The notes beneath the pieces were generated by a model that was given only the letters and a program-made list of their open reading frames with translations, did not search any database and had not been told where the DNA came from. The position numbers and the translations under genes were made by a program. A stretch of 64,000 nucleotides of DNA from Bacillota bacterium (GTDB taxonomy: Bacteria; Bacillota; UBA994; UBA5500), in the NCBI GenBank assembly GCA_012735505.1, contig JAAYHE010000029.1:1988-65987 (forward strand), read 5' to 3'. The first letter of the stretch is position 1. The number at the start of each line of letters is the position of its first letter. Of this stretch, positions 23,583 through 35,888 are shown one piece after another.

Positions 23583-24990
23583 TCAGGACGCATGCCGTTC
23601 CTCAGTTTTCACCGACTCTCTTGTGCGCATACTGAGTAGCAGTACCCAAGCCGTCGCCTGCAAAAGCGCGGCTAAGAAAAAGCCACTATTAAAGCTGCCG
23701 GTTATGTCAACGATCAAACCTGTTATGGTGGGAGCTAATACCATACTCACAGTGCCTGCGAAATTGAGTAAAGCAAAGGCTTTACCGTGGGCCCTAGCGT
23801 CCGTTTGCTCTGCCACTGACGCGATCAGCAGCGGGTCGATAACTAGTTTTCCACTTAAGCCGTAAAGCAATAGGGCAGCATACAGCCCGAATAAGGAGGA
23901 CGACCAAACTACCATGGCCAAGGCAATAGCACCTGCTGGTAGCAAGCAGGCCATGATCCGCCGTCTTTGGCCGCTGCGATCGGCCAAATAGCCGAAGCCG
24001 ATGGCACTAGGGATGGTAGCAAGAGGCATTATGGTACTTACGGCTCCAGCTAGCCTCCCTCTATCTCCCTGGCAACTTGCAGGTAATAGGGTAACCAGGT
24101 GACGATAACATAAAACCCATACATGGACAGGGCACCAACCAAGAATAGCTTGATCAGATTAGCGTTGAGTTTAAATGTGGTTTGAGGGCCCGCCCCTGCC
24201 TTGGCCGCAGGCTGAACAACCTGATCAGGCTTAATTGCTTTGGCCATGATTCCAGTCAGTAGTAAGGTTGCGCCTCCGAAGAAAAGCAGAGGTACGCGCC
24301 AGTTTAATTCCAAACGCCAAACCATAAAAGAAGCTAACAGTGTACCAAGGCCAATGCCGAGGGCGCTGCCACTCATGGTGATGGCACTAGCTACCGTTTT
24401 GTAGCGGGAACTTGGCTAGCGCTAATGGCATATTGGGGAGAAAAATATGTTCCTTGGCTCAAACCTGTAACGGCGCGGGCACCCAAAAGCCAAGGATAGC
24501 TCCTAGCAAAGGCCGAGGCAATTGCACCTAGGGCATGCACCAAGAAACCGGGCACTAGTATTCTTTTGCGACCAAAGCGGTCGGCCAATAAGCCTGCTGG
24601 AACTTGTGCGGCAGCGTAGAAAAAGAAAAAAAGTGAATTAAGCAACCCCAATTGGGTGCGATTTAAGTGCCATGACGTTTCCAAAACAGCCATTATTCCC
24701 GTTAGGGCGGTGCGGTTGGCATACATGAGCAGCCAGCCTAAGAAAAAGATGGCCACCAGTTTTTTCCAATAGCTATCCTTGATCACGATATTGCCTCCTA
24801 ATATTAATGTATACAGATGCTCAGTCTCTGGCAGGTTTTGCTTGTTGAGAAGTTCTGTCCTAATTTTAGCTGTGGTATTATAAGAAAAAGTAGGCTGGAA
24901 GCCCCAACTTATAGCCGGCCGGGAATTGCCCCAGGCCGGATACACGAATGGTAGCAAACATGGCGCGAGCATGACGCAATGTCGGCACAA
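23583..24990 (-). pseudogene. MFS transporter gene broken into three consecutive ORFs (frameshifts)
   Basis: The ORFs 24391..24990 (MFS N-half, ...ADRFGRKRILVPG...), 24050..24376 (middle) and 23583..24029 (C-terminal TMs) are collinear on the minus strand. Together they reconstitute one roughly 450-aa MFS protein. Confidence 0.55.
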
Positions 24991-26530: not shown

Positions 26531-27133
26531 ATGTGGAATAGCAGTAAGCTGTCAGGCGGTCTGCGCGAGATAAGTACCAGGGCAGTTTGTGCCAAGGGAC
26601 AAAAGCGTTTTCGTCAGATAGATAGCATCGCAACTAGCCAACCGGCTGAAATGGTCTTAGGGCATCGGATCACCAGCCATTCCTTTACAGCAAGGCCCAA
26701 CGTCAATTCGGTAGAAATAAAAGGTAGGTATGATGTGCATATCTGGTATACATACGCCCAAGGCGCTTTGACGGCCGTGGAGAAAAAGACTGTGCACTAC
26801 ACTGAACATCTGCCTGTGGTAGAGCTAGAGGGCACACGTTTGGGCCAAAACGAAACTGTTGAAGTCGAAGTCATCAGGGATCCATCAGTGACCAATGTGC
26901 AAGTTAGGCGCGGCGCAGTTCAAGTCGAAGTGGAAGTGGAGTTTTATGTTGAAATTACCGGAGAGACGAAACTCTGGGTAAGAGTCTACGAGCCTCCCTT
27001 TGCCGACGACAAGAAAGATAAGAAAGCGTTTGACCTTGACCTTAGCAGCGATTACTTCGATGAAGATGACTTCGATGAAGATGGGGAATATGACGACGAA
27101 TTTGAGGATGAAGACCTAGATTTCGTTCCATAA
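26531..27133 (+). CDS. cotE: spore coat morphogenetic protein CotE with an acidic C-terminal tail
   Basis: Aligns with B. subtilis CotE: RAVCAKGQKRF / KAVVAKGRKF, VEIKGRYDVHIWYTYA / VEIEGYYDINVWYSYA, VEITGETKLWV / EVVGETKVVV. It has a poly-acidic tail DEDDFDEDGEYDDEFEDEDLDFVP. Confidence 0.75.
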   Translation: MWNSSKLSGGLREISTRAVCAKGQKRFRQIDSIATSQPAEMVLGHRITSHSFTARPNVNSVEIKGRYDVHIWYTYAQGALTAVEKKTVHYTEHLPVVELEGTRLGQNETVEVEVIRDPSVTNVQVRRGAVQVEVEVEFYVEITGETKLWVRVYEPPFADDKKDKKAFDLDLSSDYFDEDDFDEDGEYDDEFEDEDLDFVP

Positions 27134-27272
27134 TCCCTCCTCTGCTGCTGCAGATGCCGTAGGACTTTGCTCCAGAGGATGACTCTGGAGTTCTTTTTTT
27201 ATAGAGGGTCTTTAGCGCACCGCTTTTCGTACAACAACATATTTTGTAGGGGATGATTGGGGGTGCAGCAGT

Positions 27273-28625
27273 GTGATCAGAGTACAGCTGTACAAATTGC
27301 CACAAACTGGCGAAATACGATTGCCAGCAAACTTTATCAAAGGACGTAGAATCAATGCTAATAACATAATCGTATCTTTTGGTCAAAGACAGGTGGAAGC
27401 TTCTCTAGAGTCCGATCCACACCCTAGTCCTCGCTTTAGGGTCGGACTAAGTTCCGACCTTATGTCTGAGCTAGGTCTAAGGTCCGGTGTCAGGCTGAGA
27501 GCATTTTGGGACGCTCGCAAGCAGCAATTTCGTTTGGGGCCTGTTGTCGCTATCATGGTCTGGCGTTATCGCAGGGTGTCGTCTGCTTGGTTGTTCGGGG
27601 CAGCAACCGACATGGCTCGCACTTTTGTGCGTTTAGCCCGGAGCAGGGGCGTAGTCGCTTATGCTTTTTCTCCTCGCGATATAGATTGGAATAGCAAAGG
27701 GGTTATCGGTTTTGTGCCCGCCGGCAGAGGTTGGCGTAGGGTAAGCCTACCTTTGCCTGATGTGGTTTATGACCGCATCCAGAGTCGGGCCTTAGACGCT
27801 ACTCGCCGCATGCAGAATGTTAAGCGACAACTGATGGCTCTAGAAGGTTTGCATTATTTTAACCCGTGTTTTCTAGATAAATGGGATACTTATCAGGCTT
27901 TAGTGAAAGACCCGATAGTTCAGCGCTACTTGCCTAGGACTGAAAAATTAACTTCCTTGGATCAATTGGGCCCTTGGTTGCGCACTTACCCGACGGTTTA
28001 TATTAAACCCTCACGCGGTTCCTTAGGTCTTGGCATCGTTAAAATATCCCGCATGGCAAGAGGCTTTCGCTACCAACGTATCCGCATGGGGGGAGGTAGT
28101 CAGGCTGGCTTGTGCAGTTCACTCCCTAAACTGGAGCGACGCCTGCGGAACATACTGCCCAAACGAACTATGATTATCCAGCAAGGCTTGCGTTTGGCCC
28201 GATACAAAGGCAGGCCTTACGACATTCGGGTCATGGTACAGAAAACGACCCGAGGCAATTGGGTGTGCACCAATATGATTGCCCGGGTAGCATCAGCCGG
28301 TAGCGCCGTTTCTAATGTAGCCGAAGGAGGGACGATGATTTCCGTGCGCCGAGCTATCCGTGGCTCGCTAAGGATCAATGTTGGATCAGCCGTGCGTCGT
28401 ATTCGCCGAGGGGCGAGACTGATCGCTAGAGCTGTTGAAGAACAATACGGGCAAGAGTTCGGAGAGTTCGGCATCGACATGGCCTTAGATAGGCGTGGCA
28501 GGGTTTGGCTGATTGAAGTAAATGCAAAGCCTGGTAGGCAGACCGACGAACCGGGAACGCCTCCTTCTATGCGGCGGGTTACTCGTTACGCCATAGCGAA
28601 AGCAGGGTTTAGCGAAAGGGGGTGA
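27273..28625 (+). CDS. YheC/YheD-family ATP-grasp enzyme with an N-terminal tandem swapped-hairpin (AbrB/MraZ-like) module
   Basis: ATP-grasp C-terminal motifs (GLRLARYKGRPYDIRVMV, SNVAEGG, IDMALDRRGRVWLIEVNAKPG). They are shared with 30173.., 31252.. and 32597... The N-terminal roughly 100 aa carry two AbrB-like hairpin repeats. Confidence 0.7.
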   Translation: MIRVQLYKLPQTGEIRLPANFIKGRRINANNIIVSFGQRQVEASLESDPHPSPRFRVGLSSDLMSELGLRSGVRLRAFWDARKQQFRLGPVVAIMVWRYRRVSSAWLFGAATDMARTFVRLARSRGVVAYAFSPRDIDWNSKGVIGFVPAGRGWRRVSLPLPDVVYDRIQSRALDATRRMQNVKRQLMALEGLHYFNPCFLDKWDTYQALVKDPIVQRYLPRTEKLTSLDQLGPWLRTYPTVYIKPSRGSLGLGIVKISRMARGFRYQRIRMGGGSQAGLCSSLPKLERRLRNILPKRTMIIQQGLRLARYKGRPYDIRVMVQKTTRGNWVCTNMIARVASAGSAVSNVAEGGTMISVRRAIRGSLRINVGSAVRRIRRGARLIARAVEEQYGQEFGEFGIDMALDRRGRVWLIEVNAKPGRQTDEPGTPPSMRRVTRYAIAKAGFSERG

Positions 28626-28629
28626 GCTA

Positions 28630-30042
28630 GTGGCGCGGAGCCTAGTTATTATGCCTTCTGAAACTAATCGGGCTATCTTAGCAGAGCTGTTGCCCGATGT
28701 AGTTGTCAGCCCCACCTATCAAACGGGAGCTTGGCGTTTCATCATTCGCTTCGGTGATGCAACAGGAAGTGATGACAACGCACTAGTTCTCAATCGGGCT
28801 AGTGCATTGGCCACACCCGATCTAACTGCTAAGGCTCAAGAACATTGGCGAGCCAGTTCCTTACGGTATCACAAGCCGGAAAACAGGGTTACTTTCTATA
28901 AAAGATACCGGGTGCAGGTTTTTGACTGTACCGCTATTTACATGCAAAGGGTTGAAATTGGCAGCCGCCGGGTACGTGTCATACGGCCGAACTTGTCTCG
29001 AGAAACACGGCGTGTAAGTGAACTGGCTTGGCGCGCCTTATATACAGCTGGTTTAGATATAGGTGCAGTAGATATTGGCCTCTCTAGTAGTGGCAAGTTA
29101 TATGTTCTGAGTATCAATCCGTGCCCTCGCTTTAATAGAGCCATTGGGGCAGCATATGCGCGGCACATAACAGCTTGGATGCAGCGGATGGAAGGTCGTG
29201 GAGCTGCTGGCCCCTTGCGATCTTTACTCAACCCTCAAGAAAATGAGTGCCCCCAATACCTGCTGGGGGCAGATCCCGAGTTTACCTTGCGTGACGCTCG
29301 CACGGGGCGCATGGTTTTTGCCTCGGATTATTTCCCGATGCAGGGAGTCATTGGTTGCGATGCTCGGCGCGTAAGGCTAGGCCGGTCCGGTTATCCTCTA
29401 GCCGAGGTAAGGCCTGCTCCAACCCAATGCCCCTTAGAGCTTTACGAAAGCATTCGCGATCTCCTATTGATGGCCCACCGCAAGGTTCCTCGCCGCTACA
29501 TCCAGTGGCGAGCTGGAACTTTACCATTCAGCCAACTGCCGGTTGGAGGACACATCCATTTTAGTATGTTACCTACTAACCATTTTTTACGAGCACTAGA
29601 TAATAGTTTAGCTGTTGTTTTCCTAATGCTAGAAAACCCTGGAGCGGCTCGCAGACGGCGCCGCAGTTATGGTTGGTTGGGTGACTATCGTCTCAAAAAG
29701 CATGGCGGATTTGAATATCGTGCTATCCCTAGTTGGCTAGTCAGTCCAGTATTTGCCCGCGGGGCTTTGTGTTTGGCCAAAGTTATAGGGTGTGACTGGC
29801 ATCGTTGGCGTTACGATTTTTTCCTCCGTCCTGAAGCCCAAGTTGCCTTTAAAAGAGCTGATCAAGATTACTTTCGAGTCGAATTAGCGAAAGTGCTTGT
29901 AGCTATTAGGTCGTTATCTAGTTATGTCAAATATTCCCAAGAAATCGAGGCGCTGTTGAATTACGTTGAGCAAGGACGGCGCTGGACTACAGCGACCGAC
30001 ATCAGACGCAGTTGGCGATTACGCGCTTCTAGTCGCACTTAG
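28630..30042 (+). CDS. fusion protein: truncated ATP-grasp C-terminal subdomain plus COOH-NH2 ligase-like (glutamine-synthetase-fold amidoligase) domain
   Basis: The N-terminal roughly 190 aa match only the C-terminal lobe of the neighbouring ATP-grasps (AVDIGLSSSGKLYVLSINPCP). The C-terminal roughly 270 aa have GADPEF...GGHIHFS motifs reminiscent of GCS2 / phiEco32-like COOH-NH2 ligases. Confidence 0.5.
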   Translation: MARSLVIMPSETNRAILAELLPDVVVSPTYQTGAWRFIIRFGDATGSDDNALVLNRASALATPDLTAKAQEHWRASSLRYHKPENRVTFYKRYRVQVFDCTAIYMQRVEIGSRRVRVIRPNLSRETRRVSELAWRALYTAGLDIGAVDIGLSSSGKLYVLSINPCPRFNRAIGAAYARHITAWMQRMEGRGAAGPLRSLLNPQENECPQYLLGADPEFTLRDARTGRMVFASDYFPMQGVIGCDARRVRLGRSGYPLAEVRPAPTQCPLELYESIRDLLLMAHRKVPRRYIQWRAGTLPFSQLPVGGHIHFSMLPTNHFLRALDNSLAVVFLMLENPGAARRRRRSYGWLGDYRLKKHGGFEYRAIPSWLVSPVFARGALCLAKVIGCDWHRWRYDFFLRPEAQVAFKRADQDYFRVELAKVLVAIRSLSSYVKYSQEIEALLNYVEQGRRWTTATDIRRSWRLRASSRT

Positions 30043-30045
30043 CGC

Positions 30046-30109
30046 GGGCACAAGGTTTTCGCGAAAACCATATATTGTACTACTATAGGAAACATCCTTC
30101 CTTGTGCCC
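30046..30109 (+). promoter_or_regulatory. nested inverted repeats between paralogs 2 and 3 (gggcacaagg...ccttgtgccc enclosing palindrome ggttttcgcgaaaacc)
   Basis: 10-bp perfect arms at 30046-30055 and 30100-30109, and a 16-bp perfect palindrome at 30054-30069. No U-tract follows. Confidence 0.3.
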
Positions 30110-30172
30110 ACGTGTGGCTGGGCTGTAATGAGACGGGTACACCAGAGGGAGAGGCAGTGGGGGTGGCTATAT

Positions 30173-31255
30173 ATGGTAAAGGGTAGAGACTTAGTAGGGG
30201 TGCTATCTATCCGCCGGCCTGGTCCGCGTCCTTTTGCAGAAGGTAGATTCTTTCGGGAATTGATGTGGGCAGGCCGGCAAGTTGGCATACGACTAATTAT
30301 ATTTAGCCCGTTGGACATCGACTGGGAGAGGGGTAGAGTCTTAGGTTTTGTTTATGTGCCCAGTAGGGGCTGGCGGTCCAGATATTATCCTGTTCCGCGC
30401 CTTATTTACGACCGTTTGTTTCCCAGCTCTGGTACCTGGGGGTTGTACTATAACCAAGTTATCCGCATGCGGCGTGTTTTTCGGGTAAGAATGCTGAACC
30501 GAGGTTTGCGTGGGAAATGGCAGATGTATCGCATTGTGAGAAGGTACGAGGATCTACGGCCCTATCTGCCCGAAACTCGCCTCGGCAGTTACCGCAACTT
30601 GTCTGTCATGTTAGCCAAATACAGTACCGTATTCGTTAAGCCTGTTTTTGGCAGTGGTGGCAAAGGCATTTGCCGCATCCAAAGGGGACGCGACGGTTAT
30701 TTGGTCGATAGGAGTGGCAGGCCGCGCATTCGCACGCACTCTCTATTAGGCGTCATCTATGCTTTAGGGGGCATAAATCGGCGTTATCTGATTCAGCAAG
30801 GCTTGAAGCTCAACTACTTAAACGGGAGAACTTTTGATGTTCGCAGCATCGTGCAAAGGAACGGTCAAGGCGAATGGCAGGTTTCCGGCAAAGCGATCCG
30901 AGCTGGTCGACGGGGCAGAATTACTTCCAATTTACATACGGGAGGCCGGGCCTACAACGTTTCTTCCGTATTGCAGCAGTATTTTCCTGATCGAGCTGAA
31001 GAGATTGAAAAAGAAATGGAAGCATTGGCAGTACGAGTGGCAGAGGTCATGAGTCAGCGTGCGGGTCCTCTATGCGACCTAGGACTAGATATGGGCGTAG
31101 ATGTTAATGGTAAAGTATGGTTGATAGAGGTTAACTCTAAGCCAGGGCGCACTGTCTTTCTGCGCATGGGCGATCGAGAAGGCCGGCGCCGGGTTGTGCA
31201 GACGTTAATGGAATATGCCCGCTATCAGATAGATCAACAGCGTCAGAGGAGGTGA
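30173..31255 (+). CDS. YheC/YheD-family ATP-grasp enzyme (no N-terminal extension)
   Basis: Motifs GLKLNYLNGRTFDVRSIV, GRITSNLHTGG, LDMGVDVNGKVWLIEVNSKPG. ATG at 30173 follows GGGGGTGG. The ORF track starts at 30104. Confidence 0.7.
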   Translation: MVKGRDLVGVLSIRRPGPRPFAEGRFFRELMWAGRQVGIRLIIFSPLDIDWERGRVLGFVYVPSRGWRSRYYPVPRLIYDRLFPSSGTWGLYYNQVIRMRRVFRVRMLNRGLRGKWQMYRIVRRYEDLRPYLPETRLGSYRNLSVMLAKYSTVFVKPVFGSGGKGICRIQRGRDGYLVDRSGRPRIRTHSLLGVIYALGGINRRYLIQQGLKLNYLNGRTFDVRSIVQRNGQGEWQVSGKAIRAGRRGRITSNLHTGGRAYNVSSVLQQYFPDRAEEIEKEMEALAVRVAEVMSQRAGPLCDLGLDMGVDVNGKVWLIEVNSKPGRTVFLRMGDREGRRRVVQTLMEYARYQIDQQRQRR

Positions 31256-32619
31256 TACCGGATATGGTGGAAACAGGTTATGCGCGGGTGCTTGGTTATG
31301 CTAGCGAATCAGCTTCGTGTATTTTGCCCCGCAGTTTGCTCGCCCGTCTCGGCTGGCGCCAAGGCGACATAGTCAATATAGCTTTCGGCCGTGCCAGCAG
31401 GCCCGTTAAGTTAAGGGCAGGCGATGACGATGTTTGGCGGGTTTCTACCGACTTGTTGCGCCATATAGGTCTTCGTCCCAGGAAATGGCTCTATTGCGTT
31501 GACACTGGGCGCAAGTTGATACGCTTTGGTCCATTAATCGGGATTATGACAACTTGGCATGTTACTCCGTATTTTCGTTCTGTGATGCGAGCAGCTGCCC
31601 GCAAAGGTATGATGGCGGTTGTTTTTAGACCCTATGACTTGCGCCTTGGTGGCAGGCAAATGAGTGCCTGGGCTCTGGTTGGCGGCGGAATGCAGAGAAT
31701 ACGGGTCCCTTGGCCCGATGTGGTTTATAACCGCATCCCCAACCGGGGGGGAGAATTGTTAGGCAGCACTAGAGCCTGCAGACGATTATTAGCACGCGCT
31801 TCAATCCCTGTTTTTAATAGCAAATTTTTTCATAAATGGCGCATCCATCGCCTCCTGCGGAGAGATGAACAGGCTAGGCAATATTTACCTGAGACACAAC
31901 CCATGGTTAGTATGAAACAAGCACGTCAGTTTTTGCACAAATACCCGATGATTTATCTCAAACCCAATGGCGGTAGTAAGGGACAAGGAATTGTACGCAT
32001 TAGGCGTGGGCAAGGGTACTCGGTCTCTTTCCGTCGGGGTCACCATAATTTCCAGCGTACATGTACCAGTTGGCTTGAGGCAGGAAATTTAGCCAGAAGA
32101 GGTATGCATAGACGGACTTACGTTGTGCAGGAAGGTGTGCCCTTAGCTAGGTACCATGGGCGTCCTTTCGACGTGCGGGTAACGTTATACAAGAATGGAA
32201 ATGGGGAATGGATTCCCTGCGGTCCAGCAGCAAAAATAGCCGGGCGGGGTAGCATCACAACCCATGTGGCTAACGGAGGACGAGTAGTTCCATTAGATCG
32301 AGTGCTCCGCCACGTCTTCGGCAGCGAGGCAGAGACAATGCGAGTGCGGATTGAAACGGCTTCTATAGACTTGGCTCGCGCGGTAGAACGGGTAACCGGG
32401 CTCGAATTGGGTGAGCTGGGATTAGACATCGGTCTTACTACCCAAGGCCGTGTTGCGATGTTTGAAGCCAATAGCAAGCCTGGCCGTGCCATCTTTGCGG
32501 CTGCTTGGAATCGTGACGATAGGCGGAAATCGTTATCGTACCTATGTGATTATGCCGCTTCTTTAGCAGGGTTTACGAATAGCGGGGTGAAGACTGATGC
32601 CAAAACTGCTAACTGTTAG
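31252..32619 (+). CDS. YheC/YheD-family ATP-grasp enzyme with an N-terminal tandem swapped-hairpin module
   Basis: Motifs GVPLARYHGRPFDVRVTL, GSITTHVANGG, LDIGLTTQGRVAMFEANSKPG. The N-terminus has CILPRSLLARLGWRQGDIVNIAF and WRVSTDLLRHIGLRPRKWLYCVDTGRKLIRF. The start is ambiguous (GTG 31252 or ATG 31264). Confidence 0.7.
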   Translation: MIPDMVETGYARVLGYASESASCILPRSLLARLGWRQGDIVNIAFGRASRPVKLRAGDDDVWRVSTDLLRHIGLRPRKWLYCVDTGRKLIRFGPLIGIMTTWHVTPYFRSVMRAAARKGMMAVVFRPYDLRLGGRQMSAWALVGGGMQRIRVPWPDVVYNRIPNRGGELLGSTRACRRLLARASIPVFNSKFFHKWRIHRLLRRDEQARQYLPETQPMVSMKQARQFLHKYPMIYLKPNGGSKGQGIVRIRRGQGYSVSFRRGHHNFQRTCTSWLEAGNLARRGMHRRTYVVQEGVPLARYHGRPFDVRVTLYKNGNGEWIPCGPAAKIAGRGSITTHVANGGRVVPLDRVLRHVFGSEAETMRVRIETASIDLARAVERVTGLELGELGLDIGLTTQGRVAMFEANSKPGRAIFAAAWNRDDRRKSLSYLCDYAASLAGFTNSGVKTDAKTANC

Positions 32620-33895
32620 GGTGTCATTCGCTGGCACAAGTAAGATTAACCTCCATCTGCCCGGATGCAAAAATGAATCTGTATCCCTCAGTATGGGATC
32701 TTTTAACGCCCTTGCACAAATGCAACCGGCAGACACAGCCGAGTTGGTCCTACATCGCACAGCTGCCCGTCAGATGGGGTTAAGGGATAAAGAAAAAATA
32801 GCTTATTACCGGCAGGGTAAAACCGTTAAGACAGGGCCTGTAGTAGGAATCTTAACCGCAGGCCAAGGTGTAGTTCCGGGGAACCGCGAGATGTTTCGAT
32901 TCGTGCAAAGGGCCTGCCAGCAGGCGGGCCTGGTGGCTTATGTTTTTACCCCAGCTGATGTAGATTGGACGCGCAACGTGGTCAGGGGATATCAATATCG
33001 TCAGGGACGCTGGCAATCTCGCCGTTTTCCTTTGCCCGACGTCGTCTATAATCGTGTCCCCAATCGGCAATTGGAGAGGGGTAGCGCCGTACGGTTGGTT
33101 AAACAGCGCCTGCGTTCTCGCGGCATTCCTTATTATAACTCCCATTATCTTAATAAATATGACTTGTATCGCATCTTGAGAGACACCGAAGTAGAGCCCC
33201 ACTTACCTTGGACCAGATCAGTAAGCAAAACTAGCGATATCGCAGGCGCCTTAAGACGGTTTGGCAGTGTTTACCTAAAGCCTAAACATGCTTTTGCTGG
33301 CAAAGGTATTTTGCGCGTCGATCTGCGGCCGTCTGGCTGGACTCTAAGATATCGTATGGGTCGTAATAGGGAAGTTAATGGCAGCACTCTAGCCGCTTTG
33401 TGGCCTGTACTTCATCGCCATATGGGCGGAAAAGGCTACGTGGTGCAGCAAGCTATACCTTTAGCACGCTATCAGGGGAGAGCTTTCGATGTGCGGTTGC
33501 TGGCACAGAAAAATGAGGCAGGTTACTGGCAAGTAACTGGCATGGGAATTCGCGTTGCTGGTAAGGGTAGCATCACAACACATGTTCCCAATGGTGGCTT
33601 TATCGCATCTGCTGATAAGGTCATTCCCGAGGTGTTCGGTTCACAAGCAGCTGAGGTTAGAGAAAATGTCGTGCGCTTAGCCCTTATGGTGGCACCCATC
33701 GTAGAAAAAAGTAGTCGGGGGCTATTTGGCGAGATGTCCATGGACATTGGTATTGATAGACAAGGGTGGCCTTGGTTCTTTGAAGCCAACGCCAAACCCA
33801 TGCGTTTTGACGAATCAGGTATCAGGAGGCGAGGGTTGGCGACCTTGGTCGCATATGCGAAATATCTCGCAGGAGTGCCCGAGGGAGGAGGGTAG
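32597..33895 (+). CDS. YheC/YheD-family ATP-grasp enzyme (single N-terminal hairpin-like motif)
   Basis: Motifs AIPLARYQGRAFDVRLLA, GSITTHVPNGG, MDIGIDRQGWPWFFEANAKP. It overlaps the previous gene by 23 nt. Confidence 0.7.
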   Translation: MPKLLTVRVSFAGTSKINLHLPGCKNESVSLSMGSFNALAQMQPADTAELVLHRTAARQMGLRDKEKIAYYRQGKTVKTGPVVGILTAGQGVVPGNREMFRFVQRACQQAGLVAYVFTPADVDWTRNVVRGYQYRQGRWQSRRFPLPDVVYNRVPNRQLERGSAVRLVKQRLRSRGIPYYNSHYLNKYDLYRILRDTEVEPHLPWTRSVSKTSDIAGALRRFGSVYLKPKHAFAGKGILRVDLRPSGWTLRYRMGRNREVNGSTLAALWPVLHRHMGGKGYVVQQAIPLARYQGRAFDVRLLAQKNEAGYWQVTGMGIRVAGKGSITTHVPNGGFIASADKVIPEVFGSQAAEVRENVVRLALMVAPIVEKSSRGLFGEMSMDIGIDRQGWPWFFEANAKPMRFDESGIRRRGLATLVAYAKYLAGVPEGGG

Positions 33896-33901
33896 CAAGG
33901 C

Positions 33902-34372
33902 ATGGTAAGGTACCAGCGCATCACTGAGCTTGATTTGGCGCGGCACAGGAGAGCTATGTTGCGCCTGATACGAGCCCACGGTGATAGGCACATCACACGT
34001 AAAGCCTACCAGAATTTGCGTACCATGCGGCCCGCGAGGTTAGCGCGAGAGGGGAATGTGATCTGGACAGCTTGGGATGGCGATCTCTTAGTAGGTGTGA
34101 TTATTTGTGAAAGTTATGGTAAGCGTACTTCTTTTTCAGTTGTGCGCAAGAGTCACCGGTCGCGCGGAATTGCTAAGGCACTTTTACTGCGTGCAGTAAA
34201 CTCTATGGGTAGGTTTTATGCCGAGGTAGCGTCTGATAACCTGGCTAGCATGAAAGTGCTATTTGGCATGGGTATGGTAGCCTACGATGCTTTCGTGCGC
34301 TATGGCAAAATCATCTTACGTGTACGTAATGGCTTCAACGTTTCATCGCTTGAGGAAGAAGACCGTGGGTGA
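33902..34372 (+). CDS. GNAT-fold acetyltransferase-like protein
   Basis: 156 aa with an acyl-CoA-binding-like segment VVRKSHRSRGIAKALL. It follows the last ATP-grasp gene by 6 nt and has a GGGAGGAGGG RBS. Confidence 0.45.
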   Translation: MVRYQRITELDLARHRRAMLRLIRAHGDRHITRKAYQNLRTMRPARLAREGNVIWTAWDGDLLVGVIICESYGKRTSFSVVRKSHRSRGIAKALLLRAVNSMGRFYAEVASDNLASMKVLFGMGMVAYDAFVRYGKIILRVRNGFNVSSLEEEDRG

Positions 34373-34535
34373 AATATTAATCAGGCCGCGACCTGTTGGG
34401 AGAGTCTCCGACAGGTTGTGGCCTGATTGTTTAAGTGAAGGTCTCTTTTGCTTCCTGGCTCAGGCAAGCATAAAGTTAAAGTCCGCCCCATAGAAATGAA
34501 ACGATGGAGAATACTGCGGGGAAGGAGCGATTGGC

Positions 34536-35888
34536 GTGAACATATGGCGTGGGGCAGACATCGCTCAAATATTTGGTGTAGAAGATGAGGGGTTAGTGCA
34601 AAATGGAGTGTTTTGTTTAAGCACTCCTTTCGGGCCGGCCGCACCTTCCGTCTATCGGGGTGATGTACGTTTCCTACAGTGGTTAGGGGCTGAGCTGCCC
34701 AGCATTACCACTAGGCTGGGGCGCCTAGGATTAAGTCGACTGTTACCTACGCCTGCAGGCCAATATTATGCCAATCTAGGTGGTGAATATGTGCTGCTGG
34801 CAACACTAGAGACGGGGCCGATTTGCGATGTCCATAACGCCTTTGAATTATTTACCGTCTCTGTTGGCCTAGCCCATGTCCATGCACAAGATGTGGGGGG
34901 AATAACGAGCAGTTCTCCTGATTGGTCAACTTATTATCAGGCTCAACGCGATAAGTTAGAACAAATAAGGCCGCCAGATCTATCTAGGCGAGCGCGGGCT
35001 GCCTGGGCTTTGTTGGAGGAGAGTTGGCAGCTTTGTATCGACGAAGCAGTGAGTCTGCTGGCAGATATACCTCGCGAAGCACGTGCGACTTGTTTAACCT
35101 TGGGGTTGAAAAGCTTCAGTGATTTTATTTATTTACCTGATTTACACCGAGTGCATTATAACCCGATTGCTAATTGCCGCCTGGATTCACCTGCCGTTGA
35201 CATCGCGCGTCTGTTGCTATCTGCTTCTGGCGATGTGCGTGTGATACATAACATGTTGTTATCGTACCAGCGGGTGAGGGAAATACCACCGGTGGAAGGG
35301 CAAGAAATATTGGCGCACCTTTGGTTCCCCCATGAAATAGATCTGCAAGTATTAGGAGAGCAAGGAGCAAATACGCTAAGCGTGCAGCGGCATTATAATC
35401 TTTTGCGAGATAAGATCGCGATGATAGCCGAAGTGGAAGATTTACTCTCACCCTTTGAACAAGGGGAAAATAATGAAGAGGAAACGGAGGTGCTGTCGAT
35501 GGCTAAAAGACAATCGAGGGAAGCGAGGACGAACCCGGTGACCTTAACTACGGCAGGAGAGGAAGACAATATTTTAACGCAAGAGCAAGTAGAATTGGTG
35601 GAACCGGCTGGGGACGGCGAGCCAGTAAATGTTAGTCAACCGCAAGAGGTGCCTGAACCCGCGCCAGAAGTGGCAGAGGAGGAAACAGTGCCACGTATCA
35701 ACCTAGAGGCGAAAAGAGAGGTAAAACCTATAGTCTGGGGTCCTTTCCCTAAACCTTTGGGAGCCGCCGATGACGAGGATGACGAGGAAGATAACATTGC
35801 AGTTGAACAAGAACCATTATCTGAGGAAGTAAGCTCGGAAGAACCAGATGCCTCAATAGAAACGGAGCCTCAACCAGATATTTGTTAA
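34536..35888 (+). CDS. CotS/kinase-fold-like spore coat protein candidate with a roughly 150-aa poly-acidic C-terminal tail
   Basis: The N-terminal roughly 300 aa are globular with a degenerate phosphotransferase-like segment (IYLPDLHRVHYNPIANC...VDIARLL). The C-terminus is low-complexity, rich in E/D/P (DDEDDEEDNIAVEQEPLSEEVSSEEPD...). GTG start after AAGGAG. Confidence 0.35.
   Translation: MNIWRGADIAQIFGVEDEGLVQNGVFCLSTPFGPAAPSVYRGDVRFLQWLGAELPSITTRLGRLGLSRLLPTPAGQYYANLGGEYVLLATLETGPICDVHNAFELFTVSVGLAHVHAQDVGGITSSSPDWSTYYQAQRDKLEQIRPPDLSRRARAAWALLEESWQLCIDEAVSLLADIPREARATCLTLGLKSFSDFIYLPDLHRVHYNPIANCRLDSPAVDIARLLLSASGDVRVIHNMLLSYQRVREIPPVEGQEILAHLWFPHEIDLQVLGEQGANTLSVQRHYNLLRDKIAMIAEVEDLLSPFEQGENNEEETEVLSMAKRQSREARTNPVTLTTAGEEDNILTQEQVELVEPAGDGEPVNVSQPQEVPEPAPEVAEEETVPRINLEAKREVKPIVWGPFPKPLGAADDEDDEEDNIAVEQEPLSEEVSSEEPDASIETEPQPDIC

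Follow-up and report, generated by a model that had tools for sequence, protein, structure and literature searches.

A putative coat-component ligase of Bacillota joining a glutamine-synthetase-fold domain to a degenerate, phage-type ATP-grasp module

The DNA analysed here, called the window throughout, is a stretch of 64,000 nucleotides from a Bacillota bacterium (GTDB lineage UBA994; UBA5500; NCBI GenBank assembly GCA_012735505.1, contig JAAYHE010000029.1, positions 1,988 to 65,987 of the forward strand). Beside the spore-coat gene cotE it holds an array of genes for YheC/D-type ATP-grasp proteins, and the second gene of this array, here gene 2, is the subject of this work. Its product is probably, though with room for doubt, a conserved enzyme of two domains, encoded in a ligase operon for the spore coat that acts in the mother cell, and formed by the fusion of two phage-type families, in which the ATP-grasp half has decayed and the remaining half acts as a ligase on a coat component. 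If the predicted chemistry is real, the six-gene operon beside cotE would be an ATP-dependent route of spore-coat modification, one that would be shared by hundreds of spore-forming species and would be open to genetics in the cultivable carriers.

Systems in which genes for ATP-grasp proteins, COOH-NH2 ligases and GNAT proteins are linked in operons are credited to Iyer et al. 2009 in PMC4431377. Sequential ligation by operon-linked ligases, which had also been proposed for this array in an initial annotation made without database searches, is a standing prediction and not a new one (PMC4431377, citing Iyer et al. 2009). In Bacillus subtilis, the ATP-grasp proteins YheC and YheD are associated with the coat and have no known reaction (PMC7725329; bioRxiv 10.1101/2022.02.25.481979), and YheD localises to the basement layer of the coat (PMC7725329). 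Four paralogs of these proteins (PF14398) flank gene 2, which is itself no YheC/D protein. The C-terminal domain of gene 2 belongs to PF14395, the family COOH-NH2_lig, 'phage phiEco32-like COOH.NH2 ligase type 2'. The Pfam entry reportedly describes a context of YheC/D and CotE in Firmicutes, and comparative genomics had predicted for the family a modification of the spore coat or cell wall, in agreement with the YheC/D and/or CotE genes found beside the gene 2 family in 78 of 80 loci. The definition of PF14395 is said to come from the study of Iyer, Abhiman, Burroughs and Aravind of 2009 (Mol Biosyst 5:1636). Literature searches found no experimental work on this ligase and nothing relevant on 'inactive' or 'degenerate' ATP-grasps. 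Gene 2 is therefore a typical member of a catalogued, uncharacterised ligase family, and its existence is not new. What is possibly new is the identity of the unannotated N-terminal ~200 residues and their phage-type origin, which may have been noted in 2009; across the Bacillota family these 200 residues are an ATP-grasp that has lost its central domain and is predicted to be catalytically dead.

Fold of the N-terminal module

Residues 1-205 of gene 2, and the equivalent N-terminal modules (N modules) of 40 homologs, match no Pfam or NCBIfam family above its cut-off. A profile of the 40 N modules found its best PDB sequences among RimK-type glutamate ligases (E 0.003-0.007), in two colinear stretches, the first at the close of the N lobe and the second within the C lobe. 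When the full-length profile was used, HMMER returned one alignment (profile positions 50-189 against RimK 85-288), whose single 60-residue gap falls exactly over the RimK central domain. An AlphaFold2 (AF2) model of the module alone, has a predicted local distance difference test (pLDDT) score of 95.1. The N and C domains of the ATP-grasp fold are present in the module, and the central lid domain with its ATP-binding Lys/Arg strand and hinge is absent. The N lobe has a strand-helix-strand pattern in the AF2 model and carries the motifs I-R-(W/F)-G and L-N, N55 being present in 59 of the 63 homologs, down to ~30% identity, that were aligned for residue conservation. In active relatives, a central ATP-binding domain of ~60 residues, which holds the Lys/Arg strand and the hinge, occupies the site of the short junction loop of gene 2.

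By profiles and models, the N module is a reduced N lobe joined to a C lobe, from which the central, ATP-closing domain alone has been deleted. The initial annotation had held both the N and the central lobes to be missing; the central domain is indeed deleted, but a reduced N lobe (residues 1-75) is present in the alignments to RimK and to small ATP-grasps, and the description of a remnant of the C lobe only does not hold. RimK, the C-terminal glutamate ligase of ribosomal protein S6, is both the closest solved structure and the closest PDB sequence to the N module. RimK is active, retains the central domain and has no fused glutamine-synthetase (GS)-fold ligase, and its relation to the gene 2 module is remote (E 0.003).

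Phage-type origin of the N-terminal module

An exhaustive HMMER search with the N-module profile against 1.84 billion representatives gave 4600 matches at E<=1e-3, among them two-domain proteins and stand-alone proteins of 235-265 residues. The stand-alone proteins are complete small ATP-grasps with weak Pfam matches to the RimK and Ddl models and with invariant K59, E131, R133, K147, D203, E216 and N218 (numbering of alignment A4, that of the phage-type small ATP-grasp family). In hhalign, the N-module alignment matched this stand-alone family from end to end (99.93%, E 1.3e-35, 186 columns), its gaps coinciding exactly with the central domain and the IRN..G loop, and the motifs IRWG, LN, EYRVHVF and ALGLDFGAVDI are shared between N modules and stand-alone phage ATP-grasps. 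Matches of the hidden Markov model (HMM) to phage proteins include NJ01_096 (E 9e-21) and RIO-1_14 (E 1e-18), and the best structural matches of the N module in a Foldseek search of BFVD were phage ATP-grasp proteins. Against a YheC/D profile built from 121 sequences, taken from the neighbouring genes of 80 loci, the same alignment reached 61% (E 8e-5) over 47 columns of a generic C-lobe motif, and it reached a probability of 10% against an alignment of the four paralogs of the window. BLASTP with residues 1-210 matched paralogs 2 and 3 (E 0.005 and 0.001) over 24-75 residues at the C-lobe motif and gave nothing significant for paralogs 1 and 4, and PF14398 had no match in residues 1-205 of gene 2 or in any of the 40 N modules. 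Given this contrast in hhalign between the stand-alone family and YheC/D, the N module is not a remnant of the adjacent paralogs, and YheC/D was rejected as its source. On profile evidence, its homology to the phage-type ATP-grasps, which are small and stand alone, extends along the entire module. The initial annotation, which had seen a chimera with the neighbouring paralogs, was right about a resemblance at the C-lobe motif, albeit a marginal one limited to paralogs 2 and 3, and wrong about the family of origin. Two further proteins, P0200 (519 residues) and P0206 (569 residues), hold a tandem-duplicated small phage-type ATP-grasp, with D-E-N in both copies and no amidoligase domain.

The stand-alone small ATP-grasp was found by tblastn in 313 phage records, with carriers among phiEco32-like Kuravirus, LUZ24-like Bruynoghevirus, PA11-like and RIO-1-like phages, and its gene lies in an early-gene module close to amidoligases (PF12224). 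The module of Pseudomonas phage Epa2 (L087, 1962-7663) comprises gp16 (PF14395, E 6.4e-8), gp18 (PF12224), gp19 (class II glutamine amidotransferase, GATase II), gp21 (small ATP-grasp) and gp22 (GGACT cyclotransferase). Phage UFV-P2 has the module in the same order (PMC3890496). In these two LUZ24-like phages the small ATP-grasp shares one module with a PF14395 ligase, and related modules occur in phages NJ01 (L084), RIO-1 (L085) and FBPa8 (L086). Phage modules of this kind combine two GS-fold amidoligases (PF14395 and PF12224), a class II and sometimes also a class I glutamine amidotransferase, a small ATP-grasp and a gamma-glutamyl cyclotransferase; no reported function for them was found in the literature. 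The C-terminal domain (C domain) of gene 2 matches Epa2 gp16 in BLASTP (E 5e-5) across the motifs GGH.H ... YG..G..R.K..GG.EYR, and when the C domain was searched by tblastn against 50,697 phage records nothing matched, so that the link between the phage PF14395 proteins and the C domain is one of Pfam membership, pairwise BLASTP and a local HMM only. The phage small ATP-grasps retain what the N module has lost, namely the central domain and the invariant residues K, E, D, E and N. The phage ATP-grasp and amidoligase are separate genes, whereas in gene 2 they are fused, and the glutamine amidotransferase and GGACT cyclotransferase of the phage modules are both absent from the gene 2 operon. 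The simplest history, as reconstructed from these comparisons, would be that two partner families fused and that the ATP-grasp half was later inactivated.

Catalytic decay of the N-terminal module

The former Mg-ligand positions of gene 2 are D148, S161 and N163, with S161 in place of the Mg-binding Glu; we take these residues to correspond to RimK D248, E260 and N262. The same columns vary freely across the family. Of 263 proteins aligned to the N-module HMM, 219 have an amidoligase domain, and not one of these has the D/E-E-N Mg triad, whereas 34 of the 44 without that domain have exactly D-E-N. The residues between the anchors that flank the central domain number 17 in the 219 fused proteins and 61 in the stand-alone ones (medians). 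At least 50 residues lie between these anchors in 28 of the 219 (e.g. P0025 and P0245), and the long forms that were inspected (P0025, P0245 and P0226) keep a recognisable central segment and have lost the Mg ligands, which looks like an intermediate stage of decay. Among the catalytic residues of A4, R133 is partly kept, as R94 of gene 2 (38 of 63 sequences), and the equivalents of K59, E131, K147, D203, E216 and N218 vary. Because the catalytic residues are mostly gone, the N module is read as a degenerate homolog rather than a functional member of the family. By two independent counts, absence of the central domain and loss of the Mg triad, the module is predicted to be catalytically dead, as the initial annotation had proposed for the ATP-grasp half. 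The dead module is under selection, since it is conserved across classes, since some positions, R135 and Y138 for example, are conserved in fused proteins and not in stand-alone ATP-grasps, and since its model is of high confidence.

The C-terminal ligase domain

The PF14395 profile matches residues 212-464 along its full length (positions 1-254 of 254; E 6.7e-87, 291.3 bits against a cut-off of 25); the Pfam model covers this part alone and not the N-terminal 200 residues. The domain has the glutamine-synthetase/GCS2-like fold, and the second-domain assignment of the initial annotation, like the fusion of two ligase folds that it had described, is borne out. In the AF2 model of the full chain, built from the 63-sequence alignment (pLDDT 93.6; predicted template modelling score, pTM, 0.93), the motifs GADPEF, E259, GGHIHFS and FEY fall on predicted strands, GADPEF lying in strand 212-222. 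The linker at residues 190-210, between the two domains, has a pLDDT of 58-71. Across the 63 homologs 21 residues of the C domain are invariant, among them D215, E217, D244, E259, H308, H310, D324, E335, R343, E362 and R364. By fold analogy, D215 and E217 of GADPEF may be an acidic pair that binds metal. In the segment from RRRRRS to GGFEYR, R343 is invariant, R344 is present in at least 90% of sequences and F361, E362, Y363 and R364 are invariant; these residues may bind phosphate and substrate. The pattern of conservation is that expected for an active enzyme, and the C domain is apparently an intact GS-fold ligase.

Sequence searches found no match of the C domain to solved structures, and YbdK/GCS2 is the closest solved fold. 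The YbdK/GCS2 carboxylate-amine ligases and the PafA/Dop proteins (Pup ligase and depupylase) differ from gene 2, having no sequence-level match to its C domain. Gene 2 does not belong by sequence to the PafA/Dop Pup ligase family, and no gene for a Pup-like substrate is present.

Distribution and genomic neighbours

A word-indexed search gave 120 full-length homologs, nearly all of 440-570 residues and with both parts, and a pattern scan in which each species was represented by a single genome found the gene in 596 of them, almost all assigned to Bacillota by their record titles. Carriers include Syntrophomonadaceae, Thermoactinomycetaceae, Thermincola, Tepidibacillus, Ammoniphilus, Peptococcaceae and Limnochordales. 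Proteins with this architecture and length are found in >200 clusters at 50% identity, and isolate genomes of Thermoactinomyces, Tepidibacillus, Syntrophomonas and Paenibacillus encode the fusion. Judged from these sequences, the two-domain architecture is the norm for this family in Bacillota, and not unusual.

Neighbouring genes were counted in the 80 best loci, YheC/D within 10 kb and CotE, at phmmer sensitivity, within the flank. Both cotE and YheC/D were found in 18 loci, cotE alone in 17, YheC/D alone in 43 and neither in 2. One or both adjoin the gene in 78 loci, with up to five YheC/D paralogs, and cotE is tightly linked in 35, sometimes as the sole conserved neighbour. The 17 loci with cotE and no YheC/D within 10 kb argue against a role specific to docking on YheC/D. 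The closest relatives of the window (L001, L003, L005 and L006) have the order cotE, YheC/D, gene 2, three YheC/D, GNAT and CotS-like; in Syntrophomonadaceae the unit is YheC/D and gene 2, amid housekeeping genes. Every linked CotE has a long D/E-rich C-terminal tail. Two adjacent cotE-like ORFs (open reading frames) precede four YheC/D genes and the amidoligase in L008, L013, L018, L021, L028, L031 and L071; in these double-cotE loci (Thermincola-like and related, at ~2.7-4.1 kb) the acidic tail is on the second CotE copy only. Metagenomic triple fusions, P0245 (977 residues), P0226 (783 residues, cut by a contig end) and P0119 (674 residues, cut), join a long-form dead ATP-grasp, a PF14395 ligase and a complete YheC/D ATP-grasp, and this arrangement supports a functional coupling of amidoligase and YheC/D.

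Locus and operon structure

The forward strand between 26.5 and 35.9 kb of the window carries nine genes (ORF list and Pfam/NCBIfam scans); the genes discussed here and the parts of gene 2 are listed in Table 1.

Table 1. Genes around gene 2 and parts of its product, in window coordinates
Feature	Position	Strand	Basis
cotE, outer spore coat morphogenetic protein	26531-27133	+	PF10628, E 4.9e-33
YheC/D ATP-grasp paralog 1 (gene 1)	27273-28625	+	PF14398, E 3.4e-71
Gene 2, 470-residue two-domain protein (predicted dead ATP-grasp module and COOH-NH2 ligase)	28630-30042	+	ORF, ribosome-binding site, AF2 model
Gene 2: reduced N lobe (pre-ATP-grasp), residues 1-75	28630-28854	+	Aligns to RimK 85-114 and to small ATP-grasp family
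Gene 2: deletion junction, short loop, residues 76-88	28855-28893	+	Gaps against RimK and stand-alone family
Gene 2: C lobe of dead module, residues 89-168 (YRVQVFD ... GLDIGAVDIGLSSSGKLYVLSINPCP)	28894-29133	+	Profile match to RimK 227-269
Gene 2: long helix, residues 170-200, then low-confidence linker, residues ~190-211, joining the domains	29137-29262	+	DSSP, pLDDT
Gene 2: COOH-NH2 ligase domain, GS/GCS2 fold, residues 212-464	29263-30021	+	PF14395
Gene 2: GADPEF motif (G213, D215, E217 invariant), first strand of ligase sheet	29266-29283	+	63-sequence alignment
Gene 2: GGHIHFS motif (G306, G307, H308, H310 invariant)	29545-29565	+	63-sequence alignment
Gene 2: RRRRRS basic segment through GGFEYR	29650-29721	+	63-sequence alignment
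YheC/D ATP-grasp paralog 2	30104-31255	+	PF14398, E 1.6e-75
YheC/D ATP-grasp paralog 3	31252-32619	+	PF14398, E 6e-77
YheC/D ATP-grasp paralog 4	32597-33895	+	PF14398, E 4e-68
GNAT-fold acyl/aminoacyl transferase, final gene of ligase operon	33902-34372	+	PF00583, E 5e-6
CotS-like protein with long acidic tail	34536-35888	+	Weak TIGR02906 match, E 1e-4

Terminator-like hairpins lie directly 3' of cotE (27169-27191, with a T-run to 27200) and directly 3' of the GNAT gene (34381-34426, with a 20-bp stem and a T-run to 34436). Because these hairpins flank the four YheC/D genes, gene 2 and the GNAT gene, the six look like one operon. The ORFs of paralogs 2, 3 and 4 overlap or abut, and the GTG start of gene 2 lies 4 nt past the stop of gene 1. 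This GTG is taken as the start because a ribosome-binding site (GGGGGTG) precedes it by 5-6 nt and because the N-terminus is conserved in homologs: MARSLVIMP agrees with theirs, and it forms the first strand of the fold. The ORF assigned by the initial annotation is therefore correct, and the strings that it quoted are all present, RVRVIRPNLSRETRR...SINPCP, GADPEF, GGHIHFS and RRRRRS in gene 2 and GIDMALDRRGRVWLIEVNAKPG in gene 1. The metagenome-assembled genome GCA_029549805.1 has an annotated protein (P0001) that is 99% identical to the gene 2 product, and the order of the genes there is the same. In the alignment of paralogs 1-4 the ATP-grasp catalytic residues K245, D402, E415 and N417 are invariant. 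The cotE product of the window has a D/E-rich C-terminal tail. By-eye inspection upstream of cotE and gene 1 gave no convincing match to sporulation-sigma promoter motifs, and a scan for sigma-70 promoters stayed at chance level.

Proposed function and alternative explanations

In the reading that we favour, the enzymes of the operon (gene 2, the four intact YheC/D proteins and the GNAT protein) would add amino-acid or peptide groups to carboxylates of coat components. If it works like YbdK, glutamate-cysteine ligase and PafA, the C domain of gene 2 would use ATP to form an acyl-phosphate on a carboxylate and would then join an amine to it, and the YheC/D ATP-grasps might add further amino acids. 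The function would thus be an ATP-dependent amidation of coat-component carboxylates. The dead module, which the whole-chain pTM indicates to be rigidly attached to the ligase domain, may have been kept as a rigid, non-catalytic part; we suppose that it most likely offers a substrate-binding surface or simply gives structural support to the ligase domain. The acidic tail of CotE is suggested as the leading candidate substrate, because an acidic protein C-terminus is the substrate of RimK, to which the dead module is closest among solved structures, and the CotE proteins linked to gene 2 are likewise acidic-tailed.

Several points weigh against this picture. The phage PF14395 proteins are distant from the C domain, as their modest BLASTP score and the empty tblastn search indicate, and the conserved residues of the N module are mostly core positions (N55, A133, G141, L142, V147 and P166). 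The metal- and ATP-binding roles given to individual invariant residues have fold analogy as their basis, and the part assigned to the dead module is pure conjecture. The case for CotE as substrate is built from adjacency and its acidic tail, and 43 of the 80 loci, mainly of Syntrophomonadaceae, have no CotE within the flank at the sensitivity of phmmer. No biochemical work on any member was found in the searchable literature.

Among the alternatives, the one that carries most weight, although we think it rather less probable than even, is that the operon makes a peptide or polymer for the coat, either free or anchored to the wall (of the poly-glutamate, cyanophycin or teichuronopeptide type). 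Gene 2 would then act as a ligase on an amine or carboxylate of a small molecule, and stability would be all that the dead module provides. The closest solved fold, YbdK/GCS2, fits such a product, as glutamate-cysteine ligases act on small molecules; the glutamine amidotransferase and gamma-glutamyl cyclotransferase of the phage modules are typical of small-molecule glutamyl chemistry, and peptide metabolites are often made by operon-linked ligases (PMC4431377). However, the linkage to cotE is tight in 35 of the 80 loci, where cotE can be the sole conserved neighbour, YheC and YheD of B. subtilis are coat-associated (PMC7725329), the operon holds no transporter or carrier gene, and PafA, of the same fold, acts on proteins. 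A bolder idea, which we regard as doubtful, would make the dead module a substrate adaptor derived from a RimK-like tail-modifying enzyme, which grips the acidic tail of CotE or of a different coat protein and offers its carboxylates to the PafA-like ligase domain; coat proteins would then be tagged or cross-linked by a system descended from a phage-type ligase module. If this were true, the operon would be an ATP-driven system for tagging or cross-linking spore-coat proteins, of which none has been characterised so far.

Explanations that place the origin or state of the N module elsewhere fare worse. That the N segment is a C-lobe-only remnant of a neighbouring YheC/D protein, produced by local duplication and fusion and kept as an anchor that docks the amidoligase on a paralog complex, could appeal to the BLASTP matches to paralogs 2 and 3, to the 61% hhalign score over 47 columns and to the functional coupling implied by the rare triple fusions with YheC/D; we consider it improbable in view of the full-length homology to another ATP-grasp family (99.93%, 186 columns), the absence of PF14398 from all 40 N modules scanned, the retained N lobe and the 17 of 80 loci in which cotE accompanies the gene and YheC/D does not. 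Deletion of the central domain that closes over ATP, S161 in place of the Mg-binding Glu, the want of the triad in all 219 fused relatives, with ligand columns that vary freely, and the loss of the K/R and E that are conserved in active relatives (K59, E131 and K147 of A4) together make it very unlikely that the N module is a working minimal ATP-grasp and gene 2 a bifunctional ligase, even if the ATP-grasp fold is modelled with high confidence and gene 2 keeps D148 and N163. Finally, an assembly or frameshift artefact joining two genes might be suspected in a window that comes from a metagenome-assembled genome and in which a nearby gene of the major facilitator superfamily (MFS) looks frameshifted, but the same architecture recurs in >200 clusters and in isolate genomes and gives a confident single-chain model, and we give this explanation hardly any credence.

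Other features of the window

The CotS-like protein has 450 residues, of which the last ~130 form a low-complexity tail rich in D, E and P, and its gene sits at the same downstream position in the closest relatives (L001, L003, L005 and L006). This protein is possibly another substrate for tail-modifying ligases. The dcw cluster (mraZ and rsmH) lies further downstream. Paralogs 1, 3 and 4 have an extra N-terminal domain of ~85-100 residues (27273-27570, 31252-31560 and 32597-32860), which paralog 2 lacks; these domains have no Pfam match, and the equivalent stretch of the triple fusion P0245 has a faint MazE/AbrB-like match (E 0.005). On the reverse strand at 23583-24990, the MFS transporter gene is present as three consecutive ORFs of 148, 108 and 199 residues. 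It is a single gene, of 402 or 455 residues, in the near-identical contigs L081 and L082, and the split may stem from a frameshift or an assembly error, or the gene may be a pseudogene.

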